Origin: a virus
Lineage: Duplodnaviria; Heunggongvirae; Uroviricota; Caudoviricetes
Length of the DNA: 36,266 nt
Reading direction: 5' to 3' (one strand)
IMG/VR virus record: IMGVR_UViG_2529292919_000024
This document shows positions 3,630 through 32,140 of the stretch, piece by piece. The notes under the pieces were generated by a model. The model worked only from the letters and a program-made list of their open reading frames with translations, had not been told where the DNA came from and made no database searches. The position numbers were made by a program, and so were the translations under genes. Position 1 is the stretch's first letter. Every line of letters starts with the position of its first letter.

Positions 3630-5039
3630 TTAAACACTCCCCACGTTGTACCATATTCCCCCAATCAATTTCTGAATTGGCCTTCTGGCAACAGTGTCGA
3701 CAAGATCATCCGCATTGCCGTTAATTGCGGCTGTTAAAACATAACCTGACGCATCGCCAAAGCCGTAGTCGCGCCATACGTTTTTATATTCAATGCTGCC
3801 AAGACGAATATCCCGAACGACATGATTATGCAGCCATGTGCTTAACCAGTTGTTTTCCCACACTGAACCATAAATATCGCCATTAGACGCAACTTGCGCA
3901 CCACTTCCCAGAGCGAAACCGCCATCCCTTTTAAAGATGAAGTCACCACCACCATCTGAACCGTTATTAATATGAACACCATCACCACCGTTATCTTTCC
4001 ACAAAAACATACGAATACTTCCGTCTTCGTTGGTGAATGTAATGTGGTGGCGGTAATTACTTTTTAATCTAAAACTGCTGCAATTAGATTCAATATCTTT
4101 ATAAAGATGTAATCCTAACCCATCAATATGTCCGATGCGCGAACCATTTGAATAGAAGCTAATAATACCATCTCCATCTTGCCTAAATCCGGTGTCGTTA
4201 TCTCCCAGAACAATGGAGTTTTCACCCAGTGCGTTATCAGTAGCACCAATAGCTAGACCTCCTTCAATTTTGGCCCCGTGGCTGACATATATAGCACCTG
4301 TTCTCAGATTTATAGCGAATGGCCTTAATGGGCCGATATCACCGTTTTCGCCTTGTCCTTCAGCCGTCGGAATGAAATGAAGAAAATCTTCTGAACGACG
4401 GAAAATAAGACCGAAGGCATCATTGAAAATTCGCAGCGCATTCACCGTGCCAATTTTCAGTTCTCCGGTCATTTTATCGCCGGAACGCTGAACGGCGTTA
4501 CCAGCCTTGTTTACCGTTTCCTGTAAACCGACGTTTTGGATAAACAGCGGCTTATTGGGAATATCTGCTCCGTTCCGGTCTTTTGCCAGACGGGCATTGG
4601 CATTATCCATCGCAATTTTCACCGCTTTTGCGGTGGCTGCCAGCGTTTCACTGGGGCTGTCAGTGGCACTGGTTAGCTGAACGAGTCCTTTTTTGTTCAG
4701 GCTGGCATCATAGATATCCAGATTTTCACGTGCTGTACGCTGTGCTGATACCCCGGCAATTTTAATTTCGCTGAGGTTATTTTTTATCAGCAGCGCGTTC
4801 TTGTTCATGATGGCTTTAATGGACAGTGCAAGCTGGTTTAATTTTGTTTTATCCGGTTGAATACCGGCTTCTTCCAGCGTGTTTAATAACTCCGCCTGCA
4901 CAATATTAAACCAGTCCATGCCGGGCCATGTGATAACATTATTCCCGTCACCTTCTGAAAACCAGCGAACGATAGCACTACGCTGGGCGGATACGGGCGG
5001 CATGACGGTTACGCCGCTGTCGTTATCAATATAAAACAT
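3630..5039 (-). CDS. S: Tail fibre protein S (constant Sc plus variable Sv)
   Basis: 469-aa ORF. The gix site lies inside it at 4518..4543, dividing a constant N-terminal part of about 165 aa from the variable part. Glycine-rich, fibre-like composition. Confidence 0.88.
4510..4543. repeat. gix inversion site / 34-bp inverted repeat (inside S)
   Basis: Reverse complement of 1566..1599 with one mismatch in the core and one outside; the central TC crossover dinucleotide is conserved. Confidence 0.9.
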
Positions 5040-24196: not shown

Positions 24197-24483
24197 GCAC
24201 GGGGACGAGGACGCTTGACACCGGCAACGCGGGCACGACCTTCCGCCACATCCTGACCTCGGGAGGTCAGCGTTACGACATAAAAGCCGCGCAGGTTTTC
24301 CACGGTGACCAGTTGCTGCTCTGCCAGCCAGTCAATCTGGCCGCGAACCACATCGCGGGAAACGTTGTGTCCGTATGCATCCAGACAGTCCTGAAGGATG
24401 GATTCGTTTGCTTCGTTATTGCAGTCCATCAGGGAACGCAGGATGACCAGACGACGGTCTTCGGTCAGAATATCGTTAATCAT
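24193..24483 (-). CDS. Hypothetical protein (Mu gp26-like)
   Basis: 96-aa ORF with ATGA overlap; assigned by synteny. Confidence 0.55.
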   Translation of the reverse strand: MINDILTEDRRLVILRSLMDCNNEANESILQDCLDAYGHNVSRDVVRGQIDWLAEQQLVTVENLRGFYVVTLTSRGQDVAEGRARVAGVKRPRPRA

Positions 24484-24797
24484 GAATTACTCCGGTTTAC
24501 TGCGTTTTCAAGCAGCAGCTCCAGTTGATGGGAAAATGACTGCACCCGCTGGGACAGCACCCGGATATCGCCGGACAGCTCTGCAATTCGCAGGCGCATT
24601 TCGTGTACATCTTCTGTGCCAGGGATGCTGGCGTAGCGGGTTTCCATTTCGGTCATCCGGTTTTCAAGACGCTCCACACGCTCAGTGCTGGCAAAACTAC
24701 GACGCATTGCCCAGACGGCCCCACCGGCCACAACAGGCAACAGGTAAGGCCATAACGCTAAAACTGAAATCAAATCCATTATTCTGCTCCACGGCAC
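24480..24797 (-). CDS. Lysis-associated membrane protein (holin/releasin-like, Mu gp25-position)
   Basis: 105 aa with one N-terminal transmembrane segment (LISVLALWPYLLPVVAGGAVW) followed by a coiled-coil, located in the lysis cassette. Confidence 0.6.
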   Translation of the reverse strand: MPWSRIMDLISVLALWPYLLPVVAGGAVWAMRRSFASTERVERLENRMTEMETRYASIPGTEDVHEMRLRIAELSGDIRVLSQRVQSFSHQLELLLENAVNRSNS

Positions 24798-24973
24798 CAG
24801 TGGCAGTAGTTCGCCATCGGCTGCTGTCTCAGCACATCAGGCCGCAGCTCACGACCGCAACCGGCACACAATACAGGCGGGTCATACGCCGCCGGGCGGG
24901 GAATATCACGGGTATCCCCCTGCCAGAGTTCAGCGAGCAGCAGCGCCACCGCCCGGTTCTGGTCTTCGTTCAT
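24779..24973 (-). CDS. Small Cys-rich protein (zinc-ribbon-like)
   Basis: 64 aa with CAGC...CHWC motifs; overlaps the o-spanin 3' end. Confidence 0.5.
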   Translation of the reverse strand: MNEDQNRAVALLLAELWQGDTRDIPRPAAYDPPVLCAGCGRELRPDVLRQQPMANYCHWCRGAE

Positions 24974-25271
24974 AAATTTCTTTCCTTCGGGTCTCCTGTT
25001 CCCGGACTGATGCCTTGTCGCGGTTGCACTGCCCGAGCGCCATCAACAGGTCAGTATTCCAGAGAAGGGATGCTCCCCACGTCAGGGGCTGTGGCATGGG
25101 CGGAACGGGCGTTGCTTCCGTCAGTTCTGCATCAGTTTCGGGCAGGATCACCACCGATGGCACGGGTGCGTTTTTCGAGCTCCCGCAACCTGTCAGCAGC
25201 AACGGCAGGCACAGGACGAGTGCTGCAATTGTCACCGGTAATGGCGGTTGTAATTTTTTGTTTTGCATCAT
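24930..25271 (-). CDS. Outer-membrane spanin lipoprotein (o-spanin)
   Basis: Internal ATGATG start at 25271/25268. The signal peptide ends in the lipobox LLTGC and the mature part is proline-rich. Embedded in a +1 frame inside the i-spanin gene and extends beyond it. Confidence 0.7.
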   Translation of the reverse strand: MMQNKKLQPPLPVTIAALVLCLPLLLTGCGSSKNAPVPSVVILPETDAELTEATPVPPMPQPLTWGASLLWNTDLLMALGQCNRDKASVREQETRRKEIYERRPEPGGGAAAR

Positions 25272-25518
25272 GATGTTCTGTCTCGTCTGCCAGCCGCGCG
25301 GCACGATTTGCGGCACGGATAGCGGAAAATACCTGCATCGTCTGTTCCTGACCGTGTAACAACCATTCAGCCGTGTTGCGGGCCTGTTGCTCCGTCTGTA
25401 ATTCACGGCGCAGCGTCTGGTTATCGTGGCGGGTGCTGTCCAGCCTGTGCCACAACACCCCGGACAGAACGGCGGCAAACACGGCTGCCAGCAGTAAACT
25501 TTTACTGGCGAAGGTCAT
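25132..25518 (-). CDS. Inner-membrane spanin (i-spanin)
   Basis: 128 aa with an N-terminal transmembrane segment and a coiled-coil periplasmic domain; overlaps the lys 3' end. Confidence 0.7.
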   Translation of the reverse strand: MTFASKSLLLAAVFAAVLSGVLWHRLDSTRHDNQTLRRELQTEQQARNTAEWLLHGQEQTMQVFSAIRAANRAARLADETEHHDAKQKITTAITGDNCSTRPVPAVAADRLRELEKRTRAIGGDPARN

Positions 25519-25954
25519 CCGCCCCCCTGATATTCCAGATAGCCATTTCCACTTCGCGACGGTTCATCAGTCCTTTCCATTTATGGCCTGCGGCAAACAC
25601 CCAGCGGGCCATCTGGTCACGCGCTCCGGCGTAATCACCGGCATTGAGTTTTTTCAGCAGCGTTGATTTACTGAATGCGGTAACACCGGTGTTGAAAATA
25701 AACGTTGCCAGCGCCGTTTTCTGATATGGCGTCAGCGGCACCCTGACAAGACGATCGATTGCCGCATAAACCGGTTTTAAATCACTGTCGAGAAGAGCCA
25801 TACACTCCGCATGGCTGTAACGGCGCATTTCGATATCCGGCCCGGTATGTCCCACACAGACCGTAAGCACACCGGCAATATCGCGGTAAGGCATATAAGC
25901 GATATTTTCCAGATGGATCAGAGACTGACGGGTCATTTCCTGATAACCACCCAC
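25502..25954 (-). CDS. lys: Endolysin lysozyme domain; N-terminal SAR-like segment and ATG start are out of frame upstream
   Basis: Glu-8aa-Asp-5aa-Thr catalytic triad (HLENIAYMPYRDIAGVLT). The first in-frame start is GTG at 25954. Upstream in the same frame runs ...KLKAALLAATIAGGG with no start codon, while an ATG with a Shine-Dalgarno sequence at 26016 is in another frame. Confidence 0.8.
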   Translation of the reverse strand: MGGYQEMTRQSLIHLENIAYMPYRDIAGVLTVCVGHTGPDIEMRRYSHAECMALLDSDLKPVYAAIDRLVRVPLTPYQKTALATFIFNTGVTAFSKSTLLKKLNAGDYAGARDQMARWVFAAGHKWKGLMNRREVEMAIWNIRGADDLRQ

Positions 25955-26039
25955 ACCGCCACCGGCAATCGTTGCCGCCAGCAGTGCGGCTTTCAGTTTT
26001 TGGGTATCCCCGCCATCATGCTTCCCTGAAAAAATGCTC

Positions 26040-26110
26040 TGATGGCAGTCTAAAAAATCAGATGGCAGGTGCGGGATTATGGTGACAGGAAATAACCAGC
26101 AGGATGCCGG
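26040..26110 (-). promoter_or_regulatory. Plys-like late promoter
   Basis: Minus-strand sense CTGATTTTTTAGACT: a T6 run abutting the -10-like TAGACT, with an ATTAT/CCC-rich upstream element. Same architecture as the Pmom region. Confidence 0.5.
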
Positions 26111-26533
26111 TTATTTCTGGCTTTCAGGTGAGAACAGATCAGGCTGATGACGTCGTGTATGCAGCTTTCTCTGGCGGGCAATAATCTGGTAGATCTGCGG
26201 CTGGGACAGGCGATACTGGCGACGCAGTTCTTCCATGTTACGACCATTGAACTGGCAGTAAAGCAAATCGTCGCGTAACGCGGTCAGGATCGTATCGCCG
26301 CAGGGGATGTAAAACTGCCGCCCGCCCAGAAAACAGGACAGGGCAACGGCCTGTTTACGGGCAAGCTCACGGGGATTGCTGACGTTCTGGCGTTTCAGTT
26401 CGTTTTCCAGAACATCAATCAGATCAACCACCGAACGGGGCCAGCGTGATTCCAGTTCCGGGGCCGGGATGTTATCAATATGTCCGATTAACTGGCGAAT
26501 TGCCGGATCGTGTTCAAATAAATCATGCTGCAT
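26111..26533 (-). CDS. C: Late gene transcription activator C
   Basis: 140 aa, paralogous to Mor in its C-terminal HTH (compare GGRQFYIPCG with GGGQVYIPRG). Last gene of the middle operon, upstream of lys. Confidence 0.9.
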   Translation of the reverse strand: MQHDLFEHDPAIRQLIGHIDNIPAPELESRWPRSVVDLIDVLENELKRQNVSNPRELARKQAVALSCFLGGRQFYIPCGDTILTALRDDLLYCQFNGRNMEELRRQYRLSQPQIYQIIARQRKLHTRRHQPDLFSPESQK

Positions 26534-26545
26534 ATTTTCCCCCGG

Positions 26546-26665
26546 TTAACAGACAGAAAGATACACCACGGCACTGATGGTTATCAGAACCACAAGGGCA
26601 ATCACTTTTATCGCACTAATCAGCGTGGACGGCCCGAAACATTCATCACTGAATTTTCTGTACAT
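26546..26665 (-). CDS. Small hydrophobic peptide (39 aa)
   Basis: MYRKFSDECFGPSTLISAIKVIALVVLITISAVVYLSVC with an AAGGGG Shine-Dalgarno sequence 5 nt upstream; packed 9 nt after the upstream gene and 12 nt before C. Not in the ORF track because it is under 60 aa. Confidence 0.45.
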   Translation of the reverse strand: MYRKFSDECFGPSTLISAIKVIALVVLITISAVVYLSVC

Positions 26666-26674
26666 GGTGCCCCT

Positions 26675-27037
26675 TTACCCGAACAGACGAGCGCGAAAAC
26701 GAAAGGAGAGCCAGAACGTCAGCAATCCGGCCAGCGCCCAGATGACATGCTCAGGACCCGTTTTCAGTTGAGACGTTGCCATCACGGCTAATCCCAGCCC
26801 GGACAGACTCCCCAGCCAGGTCAGAGGCCAGACGAACCGGGCAAAATGTTCAGGCACCCGGCAGCTCATTATCAGCGCATCCAGACAATCAGCGGCAACA
26901 CATAAAGCAACACTGAAAACCGAGGCACAGCAAAACATCAGCGCGCGCCAGCCACAAAACAGACTTATCCACAATAACAGCGCCAGTAATACCACCGATA
27001 AAAAATCAGGCCACTGACGAGCAGAACGCTCAGACAT
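26675..27037 (-). CDS. Small integral membrane protein (3-4 transmembrane helices)
   Basis: 120 aa from the ATG at 27037, which has a GGAGA Shine-Dalgarno sequence; strongly hydrophobic. The ORF-track start at 27088 is an upstream extension. Confidence 0.6.
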   Translation of the reverse strand: MSERSARQWPDFLSVVLLALLLWISLFCGWRALMFCCASVFSVALCVAADCLDALIMSCRVPEHFARFVWPLTWLGSLSGLGLAVMATSQLKTGPEHVIWALAGLLTFWLSFRFRARLFG

Positions 27038-27248
27038 AATGTTTCTCCCTGTAAAGCAGGCAATGATGAAGAATTTCCGGCATATCAACTGACTGCCAGC
27101 CTTTCATGTAATAACTGCCGTGGGTGCCATCATGACCGGTATAGTCGCGGGGCGCAGGCCGTGGCCCACCGGCGACACGGTGCAAAACCTCCTGACGCAG
27201 CCGCTCACGTCTGCCAAGATGAAAGGATGCATTCCAGCCTTTACCCAT
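27030..27248 (-). CDS. Hypothetical protein, first gene of the middle operon
   Basis: 72-aa ORF with a GGGGGAA Shine-Dalgarno sequence 6 nt upstream of the ATG. Confidence 0.5.
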   Translation of the reverse strand: MGKGWNASFHLGRRERLRQEVLHRVAGGPRPAPRDYTGHDGTHGSYYMKGWQSVDMPEILHHCLLYREKHYV

Positions 27249-27294
27249 GATGATTTCCCCCGGTACGGTTATTCATCACAGGATATTGAGGACG

Positions 27295-27318
27295 TAAAAA
27301 AGCCGGATTAACCGGCTT
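27295..27318 (-). terminator. Early-operon intrinsic terminator (t9.2-like), possibly overlapping the middle-promoter activator site
   Basis: On the minus strand, AAGCCGG-TTAAT-CCGGCTT followed by a T run, 7 nt after the mor stop. The dyad could double as a Mor-binding element for the middle promoter. Confidence 0.65.
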
Positions 27319-27324
27319 TACTGT

Positions 27325-27714
27325 TTACAGAAGTGAGGGCTGGTACTGGCGGTATTTCAGCCGTCGCATCCGGCGAATGGCCTTGTAAACCGTATTGAAA
27401 GTGACACCATAACGGGTGGTCAGTTCGCTGACGTTGCGACCGTTAAAATCATTCCAGATACGCAAATCCCGAATCAGCGAGTCCAGAACCTGACCGCGTG
27501 GAATGTAGACCTGACCGCCGCCCAGATGCTTACAGATAGCCACAACAATCTCCAGTGAATGGGCAGGATCAACACCCAGCCGGGACAATTCCCCGCGTAG
27601 TAAATCGTTCAGCTCCGCCAGCAGTGCCGGAAAGCGTGACGTATCCTCTGCGGGATTGTCAAGATGTGCCAGGATGGTGTCATCCTGCAAATCACCAAAT
27701 AAATCTTCCGTCAT
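27325..27714 (-). CDS. mor: Middle operon regulator Mor
   Basis: 129 aa, matching Mu Mor in size and paralogous to C. Last early gene before the terminator. Confidence 0.9.
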   Translation of the reverse strand: MTEDLFGDLQDDTILAHLDNPAEDTSRFPALLAELNDLLRGELSRLGVDPAHSLEIVVAICKHLGGGQVYIPRGQVLDSLIRDLRIWNDFNGRNVSELTTRYGVTFNTVYKAIRRMRRLKYRQYQPSLL

Positions 27715-28262
27715 TGTGCCATCCTCCGCGTCTTTCTGGCATGGGCATAAGCCGCCGTCATGGCATCATAGCCGCGCAGTTCACGACCGGACGGACTGAC
27801 CGGCAATGGAAGCCCGTGACGGGAAAAGGCTTCACGAATACAGCGGATGTGCCACTGCTTGAGTGTTTCGAGGACTGTCAGCAGCGTGTCGCCATGACAC
27901 CACGCCAGTGTGGAAACGCCCTGTCCGCCGTTGCGTTTCGCGGTCAGGCGCTGAACATATTTATCCAGCGCCACATCACCGCCATCGGTAATAAAACCGT
28001 CTTCTGCCATCTGCTGCCAGACTTTGTACACCTTCTCGCGGGGCGTGACATGTTCCTTAAAGCGGCGACGTGGATGTTTATTCAGCTTCTTAAAGCCGCG
28101 TTCTTTCATTGCATCGAGCGTCTGTTCCAGTTGCGTAACCGTCAGCTCGCGGCAACTGGTTTTGCCCGTTTTCTGCATCAGAAAGGCGCGGTAAGTGTCA
28201 TCGTCGAGTTGTAGCTCCCGACGGGCGACATGGATTAATTTAATAAGCGATGTGCGATTCAT
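27711..28262 (-). CDS. gemA: GemA (gene expression modulation protein)
   Basis: 183 aa from the ATG at 28262 (MNRTSLIKLIHVARREL...), with ATGA overlap to mor. The ORF-track extension to 28430 is non-coding. Confidence 0.8.
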   Translation of the reverse strand: MNRTSLIKLIHVARRELQLDDDTYRAFLMQKTGKTSCRELTVTQLEQTLDAMKERGFKKLNKHPRRRFKEHVTPREKVYKVWQQMAEDGFITDGGDVALDKYVQRLTAKRNGGQGVSTLAWCHGDTLLTVLETLKQWHIRCIREAFSRHGLPLPVSPSGRELRGYDAMTAAYAHARKTRRMAQ

Positions 28263-28292
28263 TTGCTCACCTCTCATATTAAGGAATGAGAT

Positions 28293-28709
28293 ATGAAAAT
28301 TGATTATGACGAGATAGCCAGAATATTTGATGTTTTTCTGGAGGCCGACACCGCATTCATTCGACTGGAAGATGTCGGCTGGGATCGTTCTCAGCGGCAC
28401 AGCGACAGCCATCAGAAGCTGGTTTTCCATCTTCTGTTGCTGGTTGAAAATGGTTTTATCAGCAACAGATATCTGGAAACAGGCACCGCAAAAAGCATTG
28501 GTCTCACCCCAACAAGCCTCGGATATTCATATTCAGGCACCAGTGTCAGACTCACACAAGATGGTCATGATTTTGCGAAAGCACTACATCAAAAACCAAT
28601 TCTTGAGCGCATAAAACAGGACCTTGCCGACGCCCCGATGACGCTCGTAACAGACGTCGGCAAACAGTGGTTAACCTCGTTTCTTAAAAAGAAACTCGGG
28701 ATTGAATAG
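28293..28709 (+). CDS. Opposite-strand hypothetical protein, DUF2513-like small winged-helix-type protein (candidate moron/accessory gene)
   Basis: 138-aa ORF with a strong RBS (AAGGAATGAGAT then ATG) and protein-like composition. It is the only plus-strand gene between c and the G segment. It diverges from gemA with 30 bp between the starts and overlaps the upstream early gene's 3' end convergently by 39 nt. Confidence 0.65.
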   Translation: MKIDYDEIARIFDVFLEADTAFIRLEDVGWDRSQRHSDSHQKLVFHLLLLVENGFISNRYLETGTAKSIGLTPTSLGYSYSGTSVRLTQDGHDFAKALHQKPILERIKQDLADAPMTLVTDVGKQWLTSFLKKKLGIE

Positions 28710-28982
28710 TTCCCGGTTCATACGTTGCAGCACATCAAGGGCGGCGACAGCCGCCACTTTATCGTTACCATCAGCAATAGTGCGGAGATTTTCAATAATC
28801 CAGTGAGGACTCAGTGACTCAGCAATAATGCCAAACCGGTACGCCATGACTTCATCAATAGCTTTTTCATGAGACGGCTCATATACAAAATTCACAAAGT
28901 CATGCACTTCTTTTTTCGGCAAACCACCGGCAATCAGCAGGGCGGCAAGCTCTTCTGATTTTGAAAATACACCATTATTCAT
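28671..28982 (-). CDS. Hypothetical early protein (Mu gp15-position)
   Basis: 103 aa from the ATG at 28982, which has an AAGGTGAG Shine-Dalgarno sequence. The ORF-track GTG at 28997 is a short extension. Confidence 0.6.
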   Translation of the reverse strand: MNNGVFSKSEELAALLIAGGLPKKEVHDFVNFVYEPSHEKAIDEVMAYRFGIIAESLSPHWIIENLRTIADGNDKVAAVAALDVLQRMNRELFNPEFLFKKRG

Positions 28983-28983
28983 A

Positions 28984-29166
28984 TCACTCACCTTCACAAT
29001 TCATGCACGCCGTGTCATCGCCCATATCGCAGTGGTTGCATTTCTGCCCGCCACAATGAGGGCACTCTTTCAGATATTCAGGGGATTCATTACCGCAGGT
29101 CGGGCATTCCTGTTTCACCGTGGTAAATTTCCCCAGCCACGAATACGATGTTTCATTGTTTTCCAT
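28984..29166 (-). CDS. Small zinc-ribbon protein
   Basis: 60 aa with CPTC...CPHC...CNHC...CMNC, eight Cys in four CxxC pairs. Confidence 0.6.
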   Translation of the reverse strand: MENNETSYSWLGKFTTVKQECPTCGNESPEYLKECPHCGGQKCNHCDMGDDTACMNCEGE

Positions 29167-29683
29167 TGTTTACCTCCGCCTGTTTTTGCGCCCGGATAAA
29201 TTCGTCAGAAAGGATTTCAGTCATGCGGCCCTGTGCGGGAGTCATCCCTGTCATGACGTAAATCACATCACCAACACGGAACCACCGGAGCGGGCCGAAT
29301 ATTGTTGCGCTGAAATCCAGTCCCAGTGCGGGTAAGAGAGCGTCAGTACGGGCATAAGTGACCGGAATATTCTCCTGCCATATTTTCGCCAGCTCTTTTG
29401 ACTGCTCCCGCAGATGTGCAGGAATGCGCGATGTTCTTGGCCTGCAACTGTTACCTGATGCGGAGCGTTGTACAGTCCACAACTCCGGCGAGAAAGGTCG
29501 CTCATTCCCCGGAAAATTCACGCCATGAAAATGACGCCCACCAATACCTGTGCTGAATACTGACCGGCAACCACAACCCAGAACCTTATCAAGATGGCGG
29601 GCTTCTTCGCGTAGTTTCAGGCAGTCCGCCATAAACTGGTCCCATGCCAGCAGTGCTGCGGGATTTGACGTTTTAAAAAACAT
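29153..29683 (-). CDS. Hypothetical early protein (Mu gp13-position)
   Basis: 176 aa from the ATG at 29683, with AGGAGG upstream and a TGATG junction to the preceding gene. Confidence 0.6.
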   Translation of the reverse strand: MFFKTSNPAALLAWDQFMADCLKLREEARHLDKVLGCGCRSVFSTGIGGRHFHGVNFPGNERPFSPELWTVQRSASGNSCRPRTSRIPAHLREQSKELAKIWQENIPVTYARTDALLPALGLDFSATIFGPLRWFRVGDVIYVMTGMTPAQGRMTEILSDEFIRAQKQAEVNNGKQ

Positions 29684-30222
29684 CACGCCACCTCCTGCAC
29701 CGCTGCGGGAGCCGGAGAACAATCAAGAATGAGATAACGCAGTACATGGTCGGTGATATTCCAGGCGCTTGAACTGCAAATAAACCGCCCCAGCCGGATA
29801 TCGATATAAGCCATCACAAAACGGGGCATTCCCTGTTTGCACATCTCGTCATCCACTTCTGCAACGATGTGAACGGACTCACAGGTCAGCACGCCTGTTG
29901 CAAACTCTTTTGCCAGCGCGGGGATAGTATTACCTTCCACCCAGGGTAATGAGCGACGCCAGTTGCACCACACCGCATCATCAACAGCAGGCTGCTCAGT
30001 TGTGTTTCGTCTTACAGGCGGCGTCGGACGCGGGCGCGGAACGTCATAAAATCCGTTGCATTCGGTGAGCACTCCGGCATCAACCGCATCAACCGCATCA
30101 CGCAGGAAATACACCATTGACGAGGGCAGCATATTCATTTTTTCAGCCAGAACCCCGCAGGTCAGGCGTCCGTAAGCCCGTAATAATGTGCTGACACCAT
30201 TCAGAATTTTTGCATCAACCAT
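29683..30222 (-). CDS. Hypothetical early protein (Mu gp12-position)
   Basis: 179-aa ORF downstream of gam. Confidence 0.6.
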   Translation of the reverse strand: MVDAKILNGVSTLLRAYGRLTCGVLAEKMNMLPSSMVYFLRDAVDAVDAGVLTECNGFYDVPRPRPTPPVRRNTTEQPAVDDAVWCNWRRSLPWVEGNTIPALAKEFATGVLTCESVHIVAEVDDEMCKQGMPRFVMAYIDIRLGRFICSSSAWNITDHVLRYLILDCSPAPAAVQEVA

Positions 30223-30320
30223 GTTTTATTCCTCAGTAATCTGTTTCAGGCGCGAGCAATCCCCTGACGCATCGCGCCATAATTAAAAGAATGTGAATTA
30301 ATTAAATATTAATGGTGGTA

Positions 30321-30845
30321 TTAAATACCGGCTTCCTGTTCAAACGGAATAATGGAAAAATCTTCAATTCCCGATTTAACCGTAATTCCGGCAACACCTG
30401 CGACGGCTTTTGGTTCCAGTAAAATCGCCTCCTTGTTGATTTCCTGCTTCGTGCGAATAAAGCGTTGCAGGCCAAGACGCTCCAGCGTTTCCATCACTGC
30501 ATCCATACCACGAATACTTACTGATGGTGGACGGACCCGCCACGATACATCACCGGTGACAAGATTCGCCGTCTTCACTTTGCCGCCGTTCGTCAGTTCG
30601 TCGCGGTTCGCTTCACACCATCCCTGAACGCCTTTTGAAAGGGTTTCAATATCGGTTTTAATCGGTGCAATCCGGGCCGCAAATTTCTCCGTAATTTCCG
30701 CGATGGCATCATTCATTTCCGTTTCCAGACGTGATGCTTCGCGCTGTAAATCCCCGATGCGTTTAATATCGGTAATCACCGCATCGCGGTTTTGTGGCAC
30801 ATAAGCCGCTGCGGCACTCTTGATACGTTTTGCTGGTTTAGCCAT
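30321..30845 (-). CDS. gam: Gam host-nuclease inhibitor (Ku-like DNA end-binding protein)
   Basis: 174 aa, the size of Mu Gam, with a coiled-coil N-terminus; in the early region at the expected distance from B. Confidence 0.88.
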   Translation of the reverse strand: MAKPAKRIKSAAAAYVPQNRDAVITDIKRIGDLQREASRLETEMNDAIAEITEKFAARIAPIKTDIETLSKGVQGWCEANRDELTNGGKVKTANLVTGDVSWRVRPPSVSIRGMDAVMETLERLGLQRFIRTKQEINKEAILLEPKAVAGVAGITVKSGIEDFSIIPFEQEAGI

Positions 30846-30864
30846 AAATTAAAGCTCCTGTTAA

Positions 30865-31164
30865 TTAATATCCGCTGTATACAATGCTGGATACAGCTCG
30901 ATTGCTTAATTCCATCTTTCGGGCAATGACATGAATATCCAGTCCTTCTTTATAAAGTTCACGACATAAATATTTGTCGTGTTCACTGATTCGGTATACA
31001 CACAATGATATTCCGTGCCTTCTGGCATGTGCCCGGAGGGCGGTTGTGGCGACTTTCAGTTTTTCCGCCATTTCTTCAACGGTCATTTTCCCGACGTTGG
31101 CTTCGATAAATTCCCGGTCTTCGCGTGACCAGCGCTTACGATTACACTTCATGTCAGCCACCAT
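30865..31164 (-). CDS. Small HTH-like DNA-binding protein
   Basis: 99-aa ORF with a TGA-ATG junction to the upstream gene and a helix-turn-helix-like segment (MTVEEMAEKLKVATTALRAHARRHG). Confidence 0.55.
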   Translation of the reverse strand: MVADMKCNRKRWSREDREFIEANVGKMTVEEMAEKLKVATTALRAHARRHGISLCVYRISEHDKYLCRELYKEGLDIHVIARKMELSNRAVSSIVYSGY

Positions 31165-31584
31165 TCAGTACAGCAGAGGCTCGCGCAGTGATGCCGGAAT
31201 ATGCAGCAGCGATAACTGAACCGCTTTCAGGGCAAGCGAGGAATAACAGCAGCGCGCCCAGCCTTTTGCCATTAACCGGTAATCGCGCCAGATACGCTGC
31301 CACATTTCACGGGCTTCAGGGTCTGATGCGCAGATGTATTCCCGGTCCATGACGTACTCCCATAAATCCACGTTGAACGCACCGCCAAATGCAATGGCGC
31401 GGGATATGCTTTCGCCGCAATAACGTGCACAGATGCTGTAATGGTCGAAAGCAATCAGGTAAGTCTTTTCACCACAATCATCAACTTTCCGGGCGCAAAT
31501 AAACTCGCGTAATTCACCACCGTTGTTATTGCGTTCCTGAATTCGGATTAATGCCTGAATTTCATTTCGGGTCTTGACGTTCAT
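31165..31584 (-). CDS. Hypothetical early protein, Cys-containing
   Basis: 139-aa ORF in the early operon. Confidence 0.55.
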   Translation of the reverse strand: MNVKTRNEIQALIRIQERNNNGGELREFICARKVDDCGEKTYLIAFDHYSICARYCGESISRAIAFGGAFNVDLWEYVMDREYICASDPEAREMWQRIWRDYRLMAKGWARCCYSSLALKAVQLSLLHIPASLREPLLY

Positions 31585-31652
31585 TGTCAGCGTTCCTTTG
31601 CGAATTAATGTCTGGCTGTATTCGGGTTATAGCTGAATAATTTCCCCTCAGC

Positions 31653-31874
31653 TTACAGCCCAAGCTCCCTGGCTGATTTCAACAACTCCTCGGTCGCTTT
31701 TTTAATGATTTCAGGAGCCATGCTCTTGATGATGCCTGCCATTACATCATGTGGCCCGGTCTGGTCCTCAGGTGAGGATTCTTCCAGTCGCACATTCATA
31801 TTTACGGCAAAACCTCCATTTTCCTGAAACTCAATATTTCTTGTATTGTTAAATTCAAAGATTACTTTTGCCAT
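31653..31874 (-). CDS. Hypothetical early protein
   Basis: 73-aa acidic ORF. Confidence 0.5.
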   Translation of the reverse strand: MAKVIFEFNNTRNIEFQENGGFAVNMNVRLEESSPEDQTGPHDVMAGIIKSMAPEIIKKATEELLKSARELGL

Positions 31875-31885
31875 TTTGTTTCACC

Positions 31886-32140
31886 TTATTGATTCTGAAT
31901 AACTGCGCTGGCTTTTACCTTCGCGCCTTTTACCTGCTTAAAGAAAACTGCGCTGCACCACGGACAACATGTCAGGGAATCCCGAATTTCCTTTTCGGGT
32001 GAGCATTGCGTCATAATCTGTTCACCGCATCCGGGGCATTTATATGTCGTCAGCGGCACCCCGTGGCACTGACAGTGTTTAACCCATTCAATATATTTTT
32101 CAGCTTTAATACACATCGTTATCTCCAGATAATCTGGCAA
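31886..32140 (-). CDS. Small Cys-rich (zinc-binding) early protein
   Basis: 84 aa with HCQCH...CPGC...CCPWC. Confidence 0.55.

Follow-up and report, generated by a model that had tools for sequence, protein, structure and literature searches.

A plus-strand DUF2513-family gene in the early region of a Mu-type prophage and its possible coupling to a convergent phrog_1988 gene

Results and Discussion

The DUF2513 locus in the window

The window analyzed here, i.e., the whole stretch of 36,266 nucleotides, is a Mu/D108-type prophage that matches Mu and D108 at approx. 97% identity along almost all of its length; the prophage is reversed, with the early, middle and late operons all reading on the minus strand. 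Within the early region, a plus-strand gene at 28293-28709 (ATG at 28293, stop codon at 28707-28709) encodes a divergent DUF2513/phrog_585 winged-helix protein of 138 aa (15.7 kDa, pI 6.2). This gene is already annotated by RefSeq/PGAP as "DUF2513 domain-containing protein" (WP_000687312.1). A Shine-Dalgarno sequence, AAGGA (plus strand, 28281-28285), is located 7 nt before the ATG and is kept in the homologous loci L155, L014 and L017. On one side, the gene diverges from the minus-strand gemA gene (27711-28262; 183 aa; PF06252, E 8e-31), with which it shares a gap of 30 bp (28263-28292) that holds both ribosome-binding sites, including the one for gemA (GAGAGGTGAG on the minus strand, 28266-28275). 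On the other side, it converges with a minus-strand gene of the early operon (28671-28982), which encodes an all-helical protein of 103 aa belonging to phrog_1988. The two genes overlap at their 3' ends by 39 nt (28671-28709), and this overlap is antisense codon for codon, such that the plus-strand reading (ending in SFLKKKLGIE and the stop) faces the minus-strand reading (ending in ELFNPEFLFKKRG and the stop). The ORF, ribosome-binding site, 30-bp gap and 39-nt overlap of the preliminary description were all confirmed, and the coordinates are exact. Its statement that every other gene from ner to the G segment reads on the minus strand was borne out in E. coli MIN10, where PGAP annotates no second plus-strand coding sequence between ner and the invertible segment.

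The 30-bp gap also contains a short palindrome (TCTCAT-N8-ATGAGA, 28272-28291; inverted-repeat search) between the divergent start codons, which covers the Shine-Dalgarno sequence of the DUF2513 gene and abuts the gemA ribosome-binding site. The gap is approx. 90% conserved in L155, L014 and L017, while the DUF2513 alleles of these loci are just 47-64% identical to that of the window. The palindrome could be an operator or form an RNA hairpin.

E. coli MIN10 and the window share a stretch of 521 bp over the DUF2513 locus with 100% identity, and a search of 5426 complete E. coli genomes gave a DNA match to the locus in 5. E. coli SE11 and TUM9757 also carry this prophage. The MIN10 prophage is flanked by both halves of an IS4-family transposase pseudogene (L156, 120-890 and 37633-38085), which suggests that its insertion by transposition took place within an IS element.

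Coding status of the plus-strand ORF

In the all-minus part of the window, 36 plus-strand ORFs of at least 100 aa lie antisense to minus-strand genes, and ORF length alone is not significant as evidence for coding in this window. These numbers, together with a promoter scan that detected no promoter for the gene (see below), represent the case for a chance antisense ORF. One of these antisense ORFs, with 219 aa (27555-28214, antisense to gemA and mor), is the old "D-196" putative ORF of a 1991 record of the Mu left end, and is almost certainly spurious. Unlike the antisense ORFs, the DUF2513 ORF fills the space between minus-strand genes rather than being nested in another gene, and it has a ribosome-binding site. 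A total of 29 close homologues of the protein were identified, and a profile search against 1.84 billion representatives found 453 family representatives, nearly all of which are stand-alone proteins of 130-145 aa. Full-length homologues reach down to 26% identity, with conservation of the N-terminus (MKIDYDE), of a RLTxxGHDFA motif and of residues H46, R86, T88, G91, H92, D93 and F94. Codon-level conservation, whose absence the preliminary description had named among the refuting results, was evident: dN/dS ranged from 0.05 to 0.29 among the 14 pairs, from several lineages, that allowed an estimate (Nei-Gojobori method). Values this far under 1 indicate strong purifying selection on the protein. 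Along with the remote full-length homologues and a confident structural model, they leave the chance-ORF reading with a negligible likelihood; we consider it effectively refuted, and have very high confidence that the ORF is a real coding gene of the DUF2513 family.

Protein family and predicted fold

The preliminary description had noted a resemblance to DUF2513. The window protein itself matches Pfam DUF2513 (PF10711) with 15.9 bits (E 0.017, residues 38-110), which is below the gathering threshold of 29.6; for this one sequence the resemblance is genuine but weak. At the level of the family it stands: among 80 full-length homologues obtained with a window-seeded profile, 58 match PF10711 at E 0.01 or better (best, 9e-15), and several close homologues carry a precomputed PF10711 match. 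Moreover, the window protein matches phrog_585 over its full length (E 2.6e-31; residues 1-137 aligned to positions 1-127 of the 128-position profile). Because of the PF10711 matches of these homologues and the full-length phrog_585 match, we assign the window protein, on profile evidence, as a divergent member of the DUF2513 lineage. NCBIfam yielded no match for the window protein, and the longer members of the family were uninformative on domain fusion, with one matching both DUF2513 and YjcQ.

Structure prediction, another check proposed at the outset, gave a confident model (AlphaFold2 with an alignment of 23 sequences; pLDDT 92.6, pTM 0.83), in which a winged helix is followed by three C-terminal helices. 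The best Foldseek matches of this model were FabT and MarR. A profile search of PDB sequences found no solved relative and returned only spurious TUT4 matches. As the preliminary description had stated for the ORF, its function is undescribed, and so is that of the family; in the literature collection searched, no paper mentions DUF2513 or PF10711. DUF2513/phrog_585 is a large uncharacterised family, with approx. 450 clusters at 50% identity. For the phrog_1988 protein, no recognisable fold or family was found.

Comparison with Mu, D108 and SfMu

Mu has a well-known semi-essential early region whose genes are mostly unassigned. Whether Mu or D108 carry the ORF in unannotated form had been left undecided in the preliminary description; alignment found the sequence to be absent from both. 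The segment of the window that lacks DNA similarity to SfMu extends from 28263 to 28730 (blastn) and reaches 28972 in the comparison with Mu. DNA similarity resumes at 28731 (SfMu) and 28973 (Mu), and on the other side gemA shows 97% identity to Mu and SfMu as far as its start codon at 28262. By alignment, Mu, D108 and SfMu are all without the DUF2513 ORF, and the segment found in the window replaces their gp14/gp15 segment.

RefSeq Mu and SfMu show gp14 together with an opposite-strand ORF of 88 aa, gp15 (Mup15, NP_050619 in Mu), which overlaps the 3' end of gp14. The Mu pair occupies the same slot as the window pair, between gp13 and gemA, and has the same layout, i.e., a co-directional gene of approx. 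100 codons whose 3' end is overlapped by an opposite-strand ORF. Despite this likeness, the proteins are unrelated: hhalign probabilities were 0.35% for Mu gp15 and DUF2513 and 0.30% for Mu gp14 and phrog_1988, and Mu gp15 belongs to PHROG 8747 as compared to 585 for the window protein. The idea that Mu gp14 and gp15 represent divergent versions of the window pair was ruled out on these grounds.

The annotation of this interval varies among records. The updated GenBank record of Mu has dropped gp15 for a same-strand ORF and marks the semi-early promoter just upstream of gemA, and the D108 record annotates nothing between gp13 and gemA. Among Mu/SfMu-type phages, gp15 (2534-2800 in Mu, our L001) shows 7 non-synonymous and 2 synonymous changes, and the ORF is largely deleted in L083; judging from these patterns, Mu gp15 is probably not a gene. 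With regard to SfMu, whose gp14 has no DUF2513 neighbor, the gp14 tail FYPEF might be read in antisense as a KLGIE-like remnant (codon complementarity, assessed by hand). If this remnant holds, it suggests that the SfMu lineage once had a DUF2513 gene.

In another Mu-like lineage (L103, 3305-3788), two small co-directional ORFs are located between phrog_1988 and gemA, one of 65 aa whose Cys pairs suggest a zinc ribbon and one of 98 aa that is hydrophobic. Their presence confirms this slot, immediately upstream of gemA, as a hot-spot for cassettes in Mu-like phages.

Association with the convergent phrog_1988 gene

The new observation reported here, which we regard as a modest lead, is that the DUF2513 gene appears to be coupled to the convergent phrog_1988 gene, with which it is exchanged as a unit. 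A total of 62 IMG/VR loci encode a relative of the DUF2513 protein; gene maps of 35 loci showed this relative mostly as a lone plus-strand gene amid minus-strand genes. A phrog_1988 homologue is located immediately downstream, in convergent orientation, in 34 of the 62 loci (iterated HMM search); of the others, at least 11 contain no more than a partial match or are cut off by the end of the contig. The paired loci are often Mu-like with shared ancestry, and these co-occurrence counts are not independent. A scan of genome contigs for further loci returned 9 only, and an additional scan of viral contigs led back to those already known.

The pair is also found in a setting that is not Mu-like, i.e., in the baseplate operon of a myovirus, where it separates the spike gene from the sheath-initiator gene (L037, L038, L042 and L043). 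The nearest named relatives of the partner proteins at these four loci are found in Providencia, and in these Providencia-type pairs the genes are separated by 1-7 nt instead of overlapping.

The comparison of the window with L155 showed an allelic exchange of both genes. Over 24296-28324 and 28974-31887, the window matches the L155 backbone at 98% identity, with no DNA match between these regions (blastn). The segment swapped as a unit (28325-28973) thus comprises the DUF2513 gene from codon 11 to the stop and all of the phrog_1988 gene but its first 3 codons. The L155 alleles show 47% (DUF2513) and 40% (phrog_1988) protein identity to those of the window, and both are nearest to the pair found in L023, L024 and L149, which is located on a different backbone (44-45% identity in gemA). 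Across loci, pairwise identities of DUF2513 correlated with those of phrog_1988 (rho 0.52), as compared to a rho of 0.13 for DUF2513 and gemA. A modest GC dip was observed over the two-gene cassette.

Each gene is also found without the other. In a reciprocal search, phrog_1988 had no DUF2513 neighbor in phages of the SfMu type, in phages with an empty site and in two phages with the baseplate context (L130 and L133), and DUF2513 occurs without phrog_1988 in L020-L022, L040, L045, L047, L058 and L153. The possibility that a 105-aa gene downstream of the L022 relative represents a hidden phrog_1988 was rejected on comparison. Between related phages (L118 vs. L121, L088 vs. L091 and L128 vs. L130), clean indels of 358, 398 and 449 bp remove the DUF2513 gene only. 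In Mu-like deletion derivatives the last 30-60 nt of the DUF2513 gene are kept, as this part is located inside the coding sequence of the partner. In several IMG/VR contigs (L048-L055), what is found of a DUF2513 homologue is limited to its C-terminal 54 residues (63% identity), carried by an ORF of 57 aa; these ORFs look like decayed remnants.

Clean removal of one gene, the occurrence of either gene alone, and the presence of unrelated fillers in the slot (gp14/gp15 in Mu and two small ORFs in L103) would all be expected if the DUF2513 gene were a stand-alone, single-gene moron, with a merely positional link to a phrog_1988 gene whose 3' end is a recombination hot-spot. This reading is, in our assessment, doubtful, as it accounts poorly for the recurrence of the pair in an unrelated baseplate operon, for the exact two-gene swap on an otherwise 98% identical backbone, and for the nearest relatives that both L155 alleles have in common. 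We lean, with some reservation, towards DUF2513 and phrog_1988 as a two-gene functional unit.

Promoters, terminators and other cis elements

The preliminary description had considered the gene to be independently transcribed. A simple consensus scan of the window and three homologues did not support this suggestion, as no sigma-70-like promoter was found upstream on the plus strand. The 30-bp gap is too short for a promoter, and transcription would thus have to start inside gemA, where manual inspection of the 5' coding region revealed poor hexamers only. Downstream, a GC-rich hairpin on the plus strand (GGCGGC-GACA-GCCGCC, 28740-28755) is located 31 nt past the stop of the DUF2513 gene; with its poor T-tract, it is a weak candidate for a terminator. 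This hairpin is located within the codons of AAVAA, the most conserved motif of phrog_1988, and an equivalent hairpin is found at the matching offset in L149 (4441-4458), even though the pair is just 37-48% identical. The AAVAA motif may be constrained at the RNA as well as at the protein level.

Signals on the minus strand were also observed. In L149, which represents Salmonella-type Mu-like prophages, a minus-strand Rho-independent terminator (3952-3971) is located between the DUF2513 start and gemA. Moreover, L149 and L153 (4011-4040) show a minus-strand promoter-like site, with -10 hexamers CATAGT and CATAAT, antisense in DUF2513 codons 4-13; in L149, this site may stand in for the Mu semi-early gemA-mor promoter. 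The DY codons of the window (GATTATGAC) likewise read CATAAT in antisense, and in the window itself the minus-strand promoter-like site is under the scan threshold.

One could hypothesize from these elements that the main role of the interval is in cis, with head-on transcription tuning read-through of the early operon into gemA-mor and the protein being secondary. The interval replaces the stretch that holds the annotated semi-early promoter in Mu, and both the promoter-like sites in L149 and L153 and the L149-type terminator would be consistent with such a role. We nevertheless consider a primarily cis-acting function very unlikely, given the strong purifying selection on the protein, a conserved fold in a family that occurs in many unrelated contexts, and the failure of the promoter-like site to reach the threshold in the window.

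Solo relatives and genomic settings

Relatives without a phrog_1988 partner were found in a variety of settings: directly after, and on the same strand as, a gene with HTH_3 and Peptidase_S24 domains, i.e., a CI-type repressor (L021); beside Arc-like, Bro-N and ORF6N genes (L020); after tail-fibre genes (L040 and L045); near a Tox-REase-5 gene (L047); beside a capsid gene, on the opposite strand (L058); and between the Q antiterminator and holin genes, on the opposite strand, in a Serratia lambdoid prophage (L153). In all, the gene is placed opposite to lytic operons in four unrelated architectures (Mu early region, baseplate operon, lambdoid Q-holin interval and capsid gene). The preliminary description had proposed an accessory gene, and the data agree with this proposal, in that the gene is present or absent between near-identical phages and relatives are found at classic moron sites.

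In marine metagenome contigs (L145-L148), a homologue of 143 aa (40% identity) is conserved in a defence island, where it is directly followed on the same strand by a Cap15-type CBASS effector gene and a gene encoding 337 aa, with DUF3644, SymE and Unstab_antitox genes nearby. The specific suggestion of superinfection exclusion or abortive infection found no direct backing in PADLOC-DB v2, where neither protein of the pair had a match at E 1 or better.

The marine defence island, with SymE and Unstab_antitox genes and the Cap15 effector beside the homologue, is one of the observations that would fit a pair resembling a toxin-antitoxin or abortive-infection system, consisting of an effector and a winged-helix protein that neutralises or controls it, with overlapping transcription adding antisense control. 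Alleles swapped as a matched pair, as expected of cognate pairs, and the overlapping 3' ends point in the same direction. Neither protein, however, matches a toxin or antitoxin family; type II systems are typically co-directional and bicistronic while the window genes are convergent; and the Providencia-type pairs lack the overlap altogether. Moreover, each of the two genes can be lost without the other, which speaks against strong addiction. Taken together, we regard an arrangement of this kind as unlikely.

Interpretation

Our preferred explanation is that the DUF2513 gene is an accessory gene for a winged-helix protein and makes up a functional pair with phrog_1988; taken as a whole, we see this statement as about evenly balanced between right and wrong. 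The cassette sits in the variable gp13-gemA slot, with phrog_1988 reading with the Mu early operon, and is swapped as a unit between backbones, from which the DUF2513 gene can also be lost by clean deletion. The DUF2513 protein would be made mainly in the lysogen, where the lytic operons are silent, and would serve there as a small regulator that binds DNA, probably as a dimer, or as an exclusion factor. On induction, early transcription would run head-on through the DUF2513 gene and yield the phrog_1988 protein, a putative cognate partner, antagonist or co-factor of the DUF2513 protein. Such a cognate partnership would explain why both genes diverge and move jointly.

The more specific proposal of a DNA binder expressed in the lysogen, with its partner supplied from the lytic transcript, is tentative. 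It builds on the orientation of the gene against lytic transcripts, on the relative found behind a CI-type repressor and on the matched allele swaps. The protein is slightly acidic (pI 6.2), and its conserved residues need not be DNA contacts.

A further hypothesis, which we consider rather improbable, is a mobile two-gene module, so far unrecognised, with allele-specific recognition between the partners, in which the winged-helix protein of the lysogen would interfere with related phages that come in or with a host function and the lytic partner would switch it off once the resident prophage is induced. If true, this module would represent a lock and key for self-immunity, which would explain why alleles are swapped in matched sets and why the convergent orientation stays fixed across unrelated operons.

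As for the broader significance of these findings, the DUF2513/phrog_585 family gains a concrete genetic partner, and the window and L155 together provide a natural allele swap. If the pair is an exclusion or regulatory switch, it would be a compact new module for prophage biology; otherwise, the DUF2513 gene would be a routine hypothetical moron.

Comparison with known systems

With regard to fold, the window protein shares its predicted winged helix with PadR-like proteins, MarR, TubR and STIV F93. Identity to these proteins is just 11-21%, and there is no membership at the sequence level; the window protein also differs from them in an insertion in the wing and in having three C-terminal helices where they have one.

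With regard to genomic placement, the DUF2513 gene resembles the morons of temperate phages, such as those between Q and the lysis cassette in lambdoid phages or behind cI: it lies between genes that are direct neighbors in related phages, and its relatives are found between Q and the holin gene, behind a CI-type repressor gene and after tail-fibre genes. The simple consensus scan found neither a promoter of its own nor a convincing terminator for the DUF2513 gene, and the gene differs from morons in moving together with a second, opposite-strand gene.

A parallel in layout is provided by the Pseudomonas transposable phage Fc02, in which olg1 and gene 10 overlap on opposite strands and are both reported to show superinfection exclusion (PMC9936078). 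In that system, a gene transcribed in the lysogen overlaps, on the opposite strand, a gene of the lytic early operon (PMC9936078). The likeness to the DUF2513-phrog_1988 pair is one of layout, and the Fc02 pair is located elsewhere, in the repressor-ner region.
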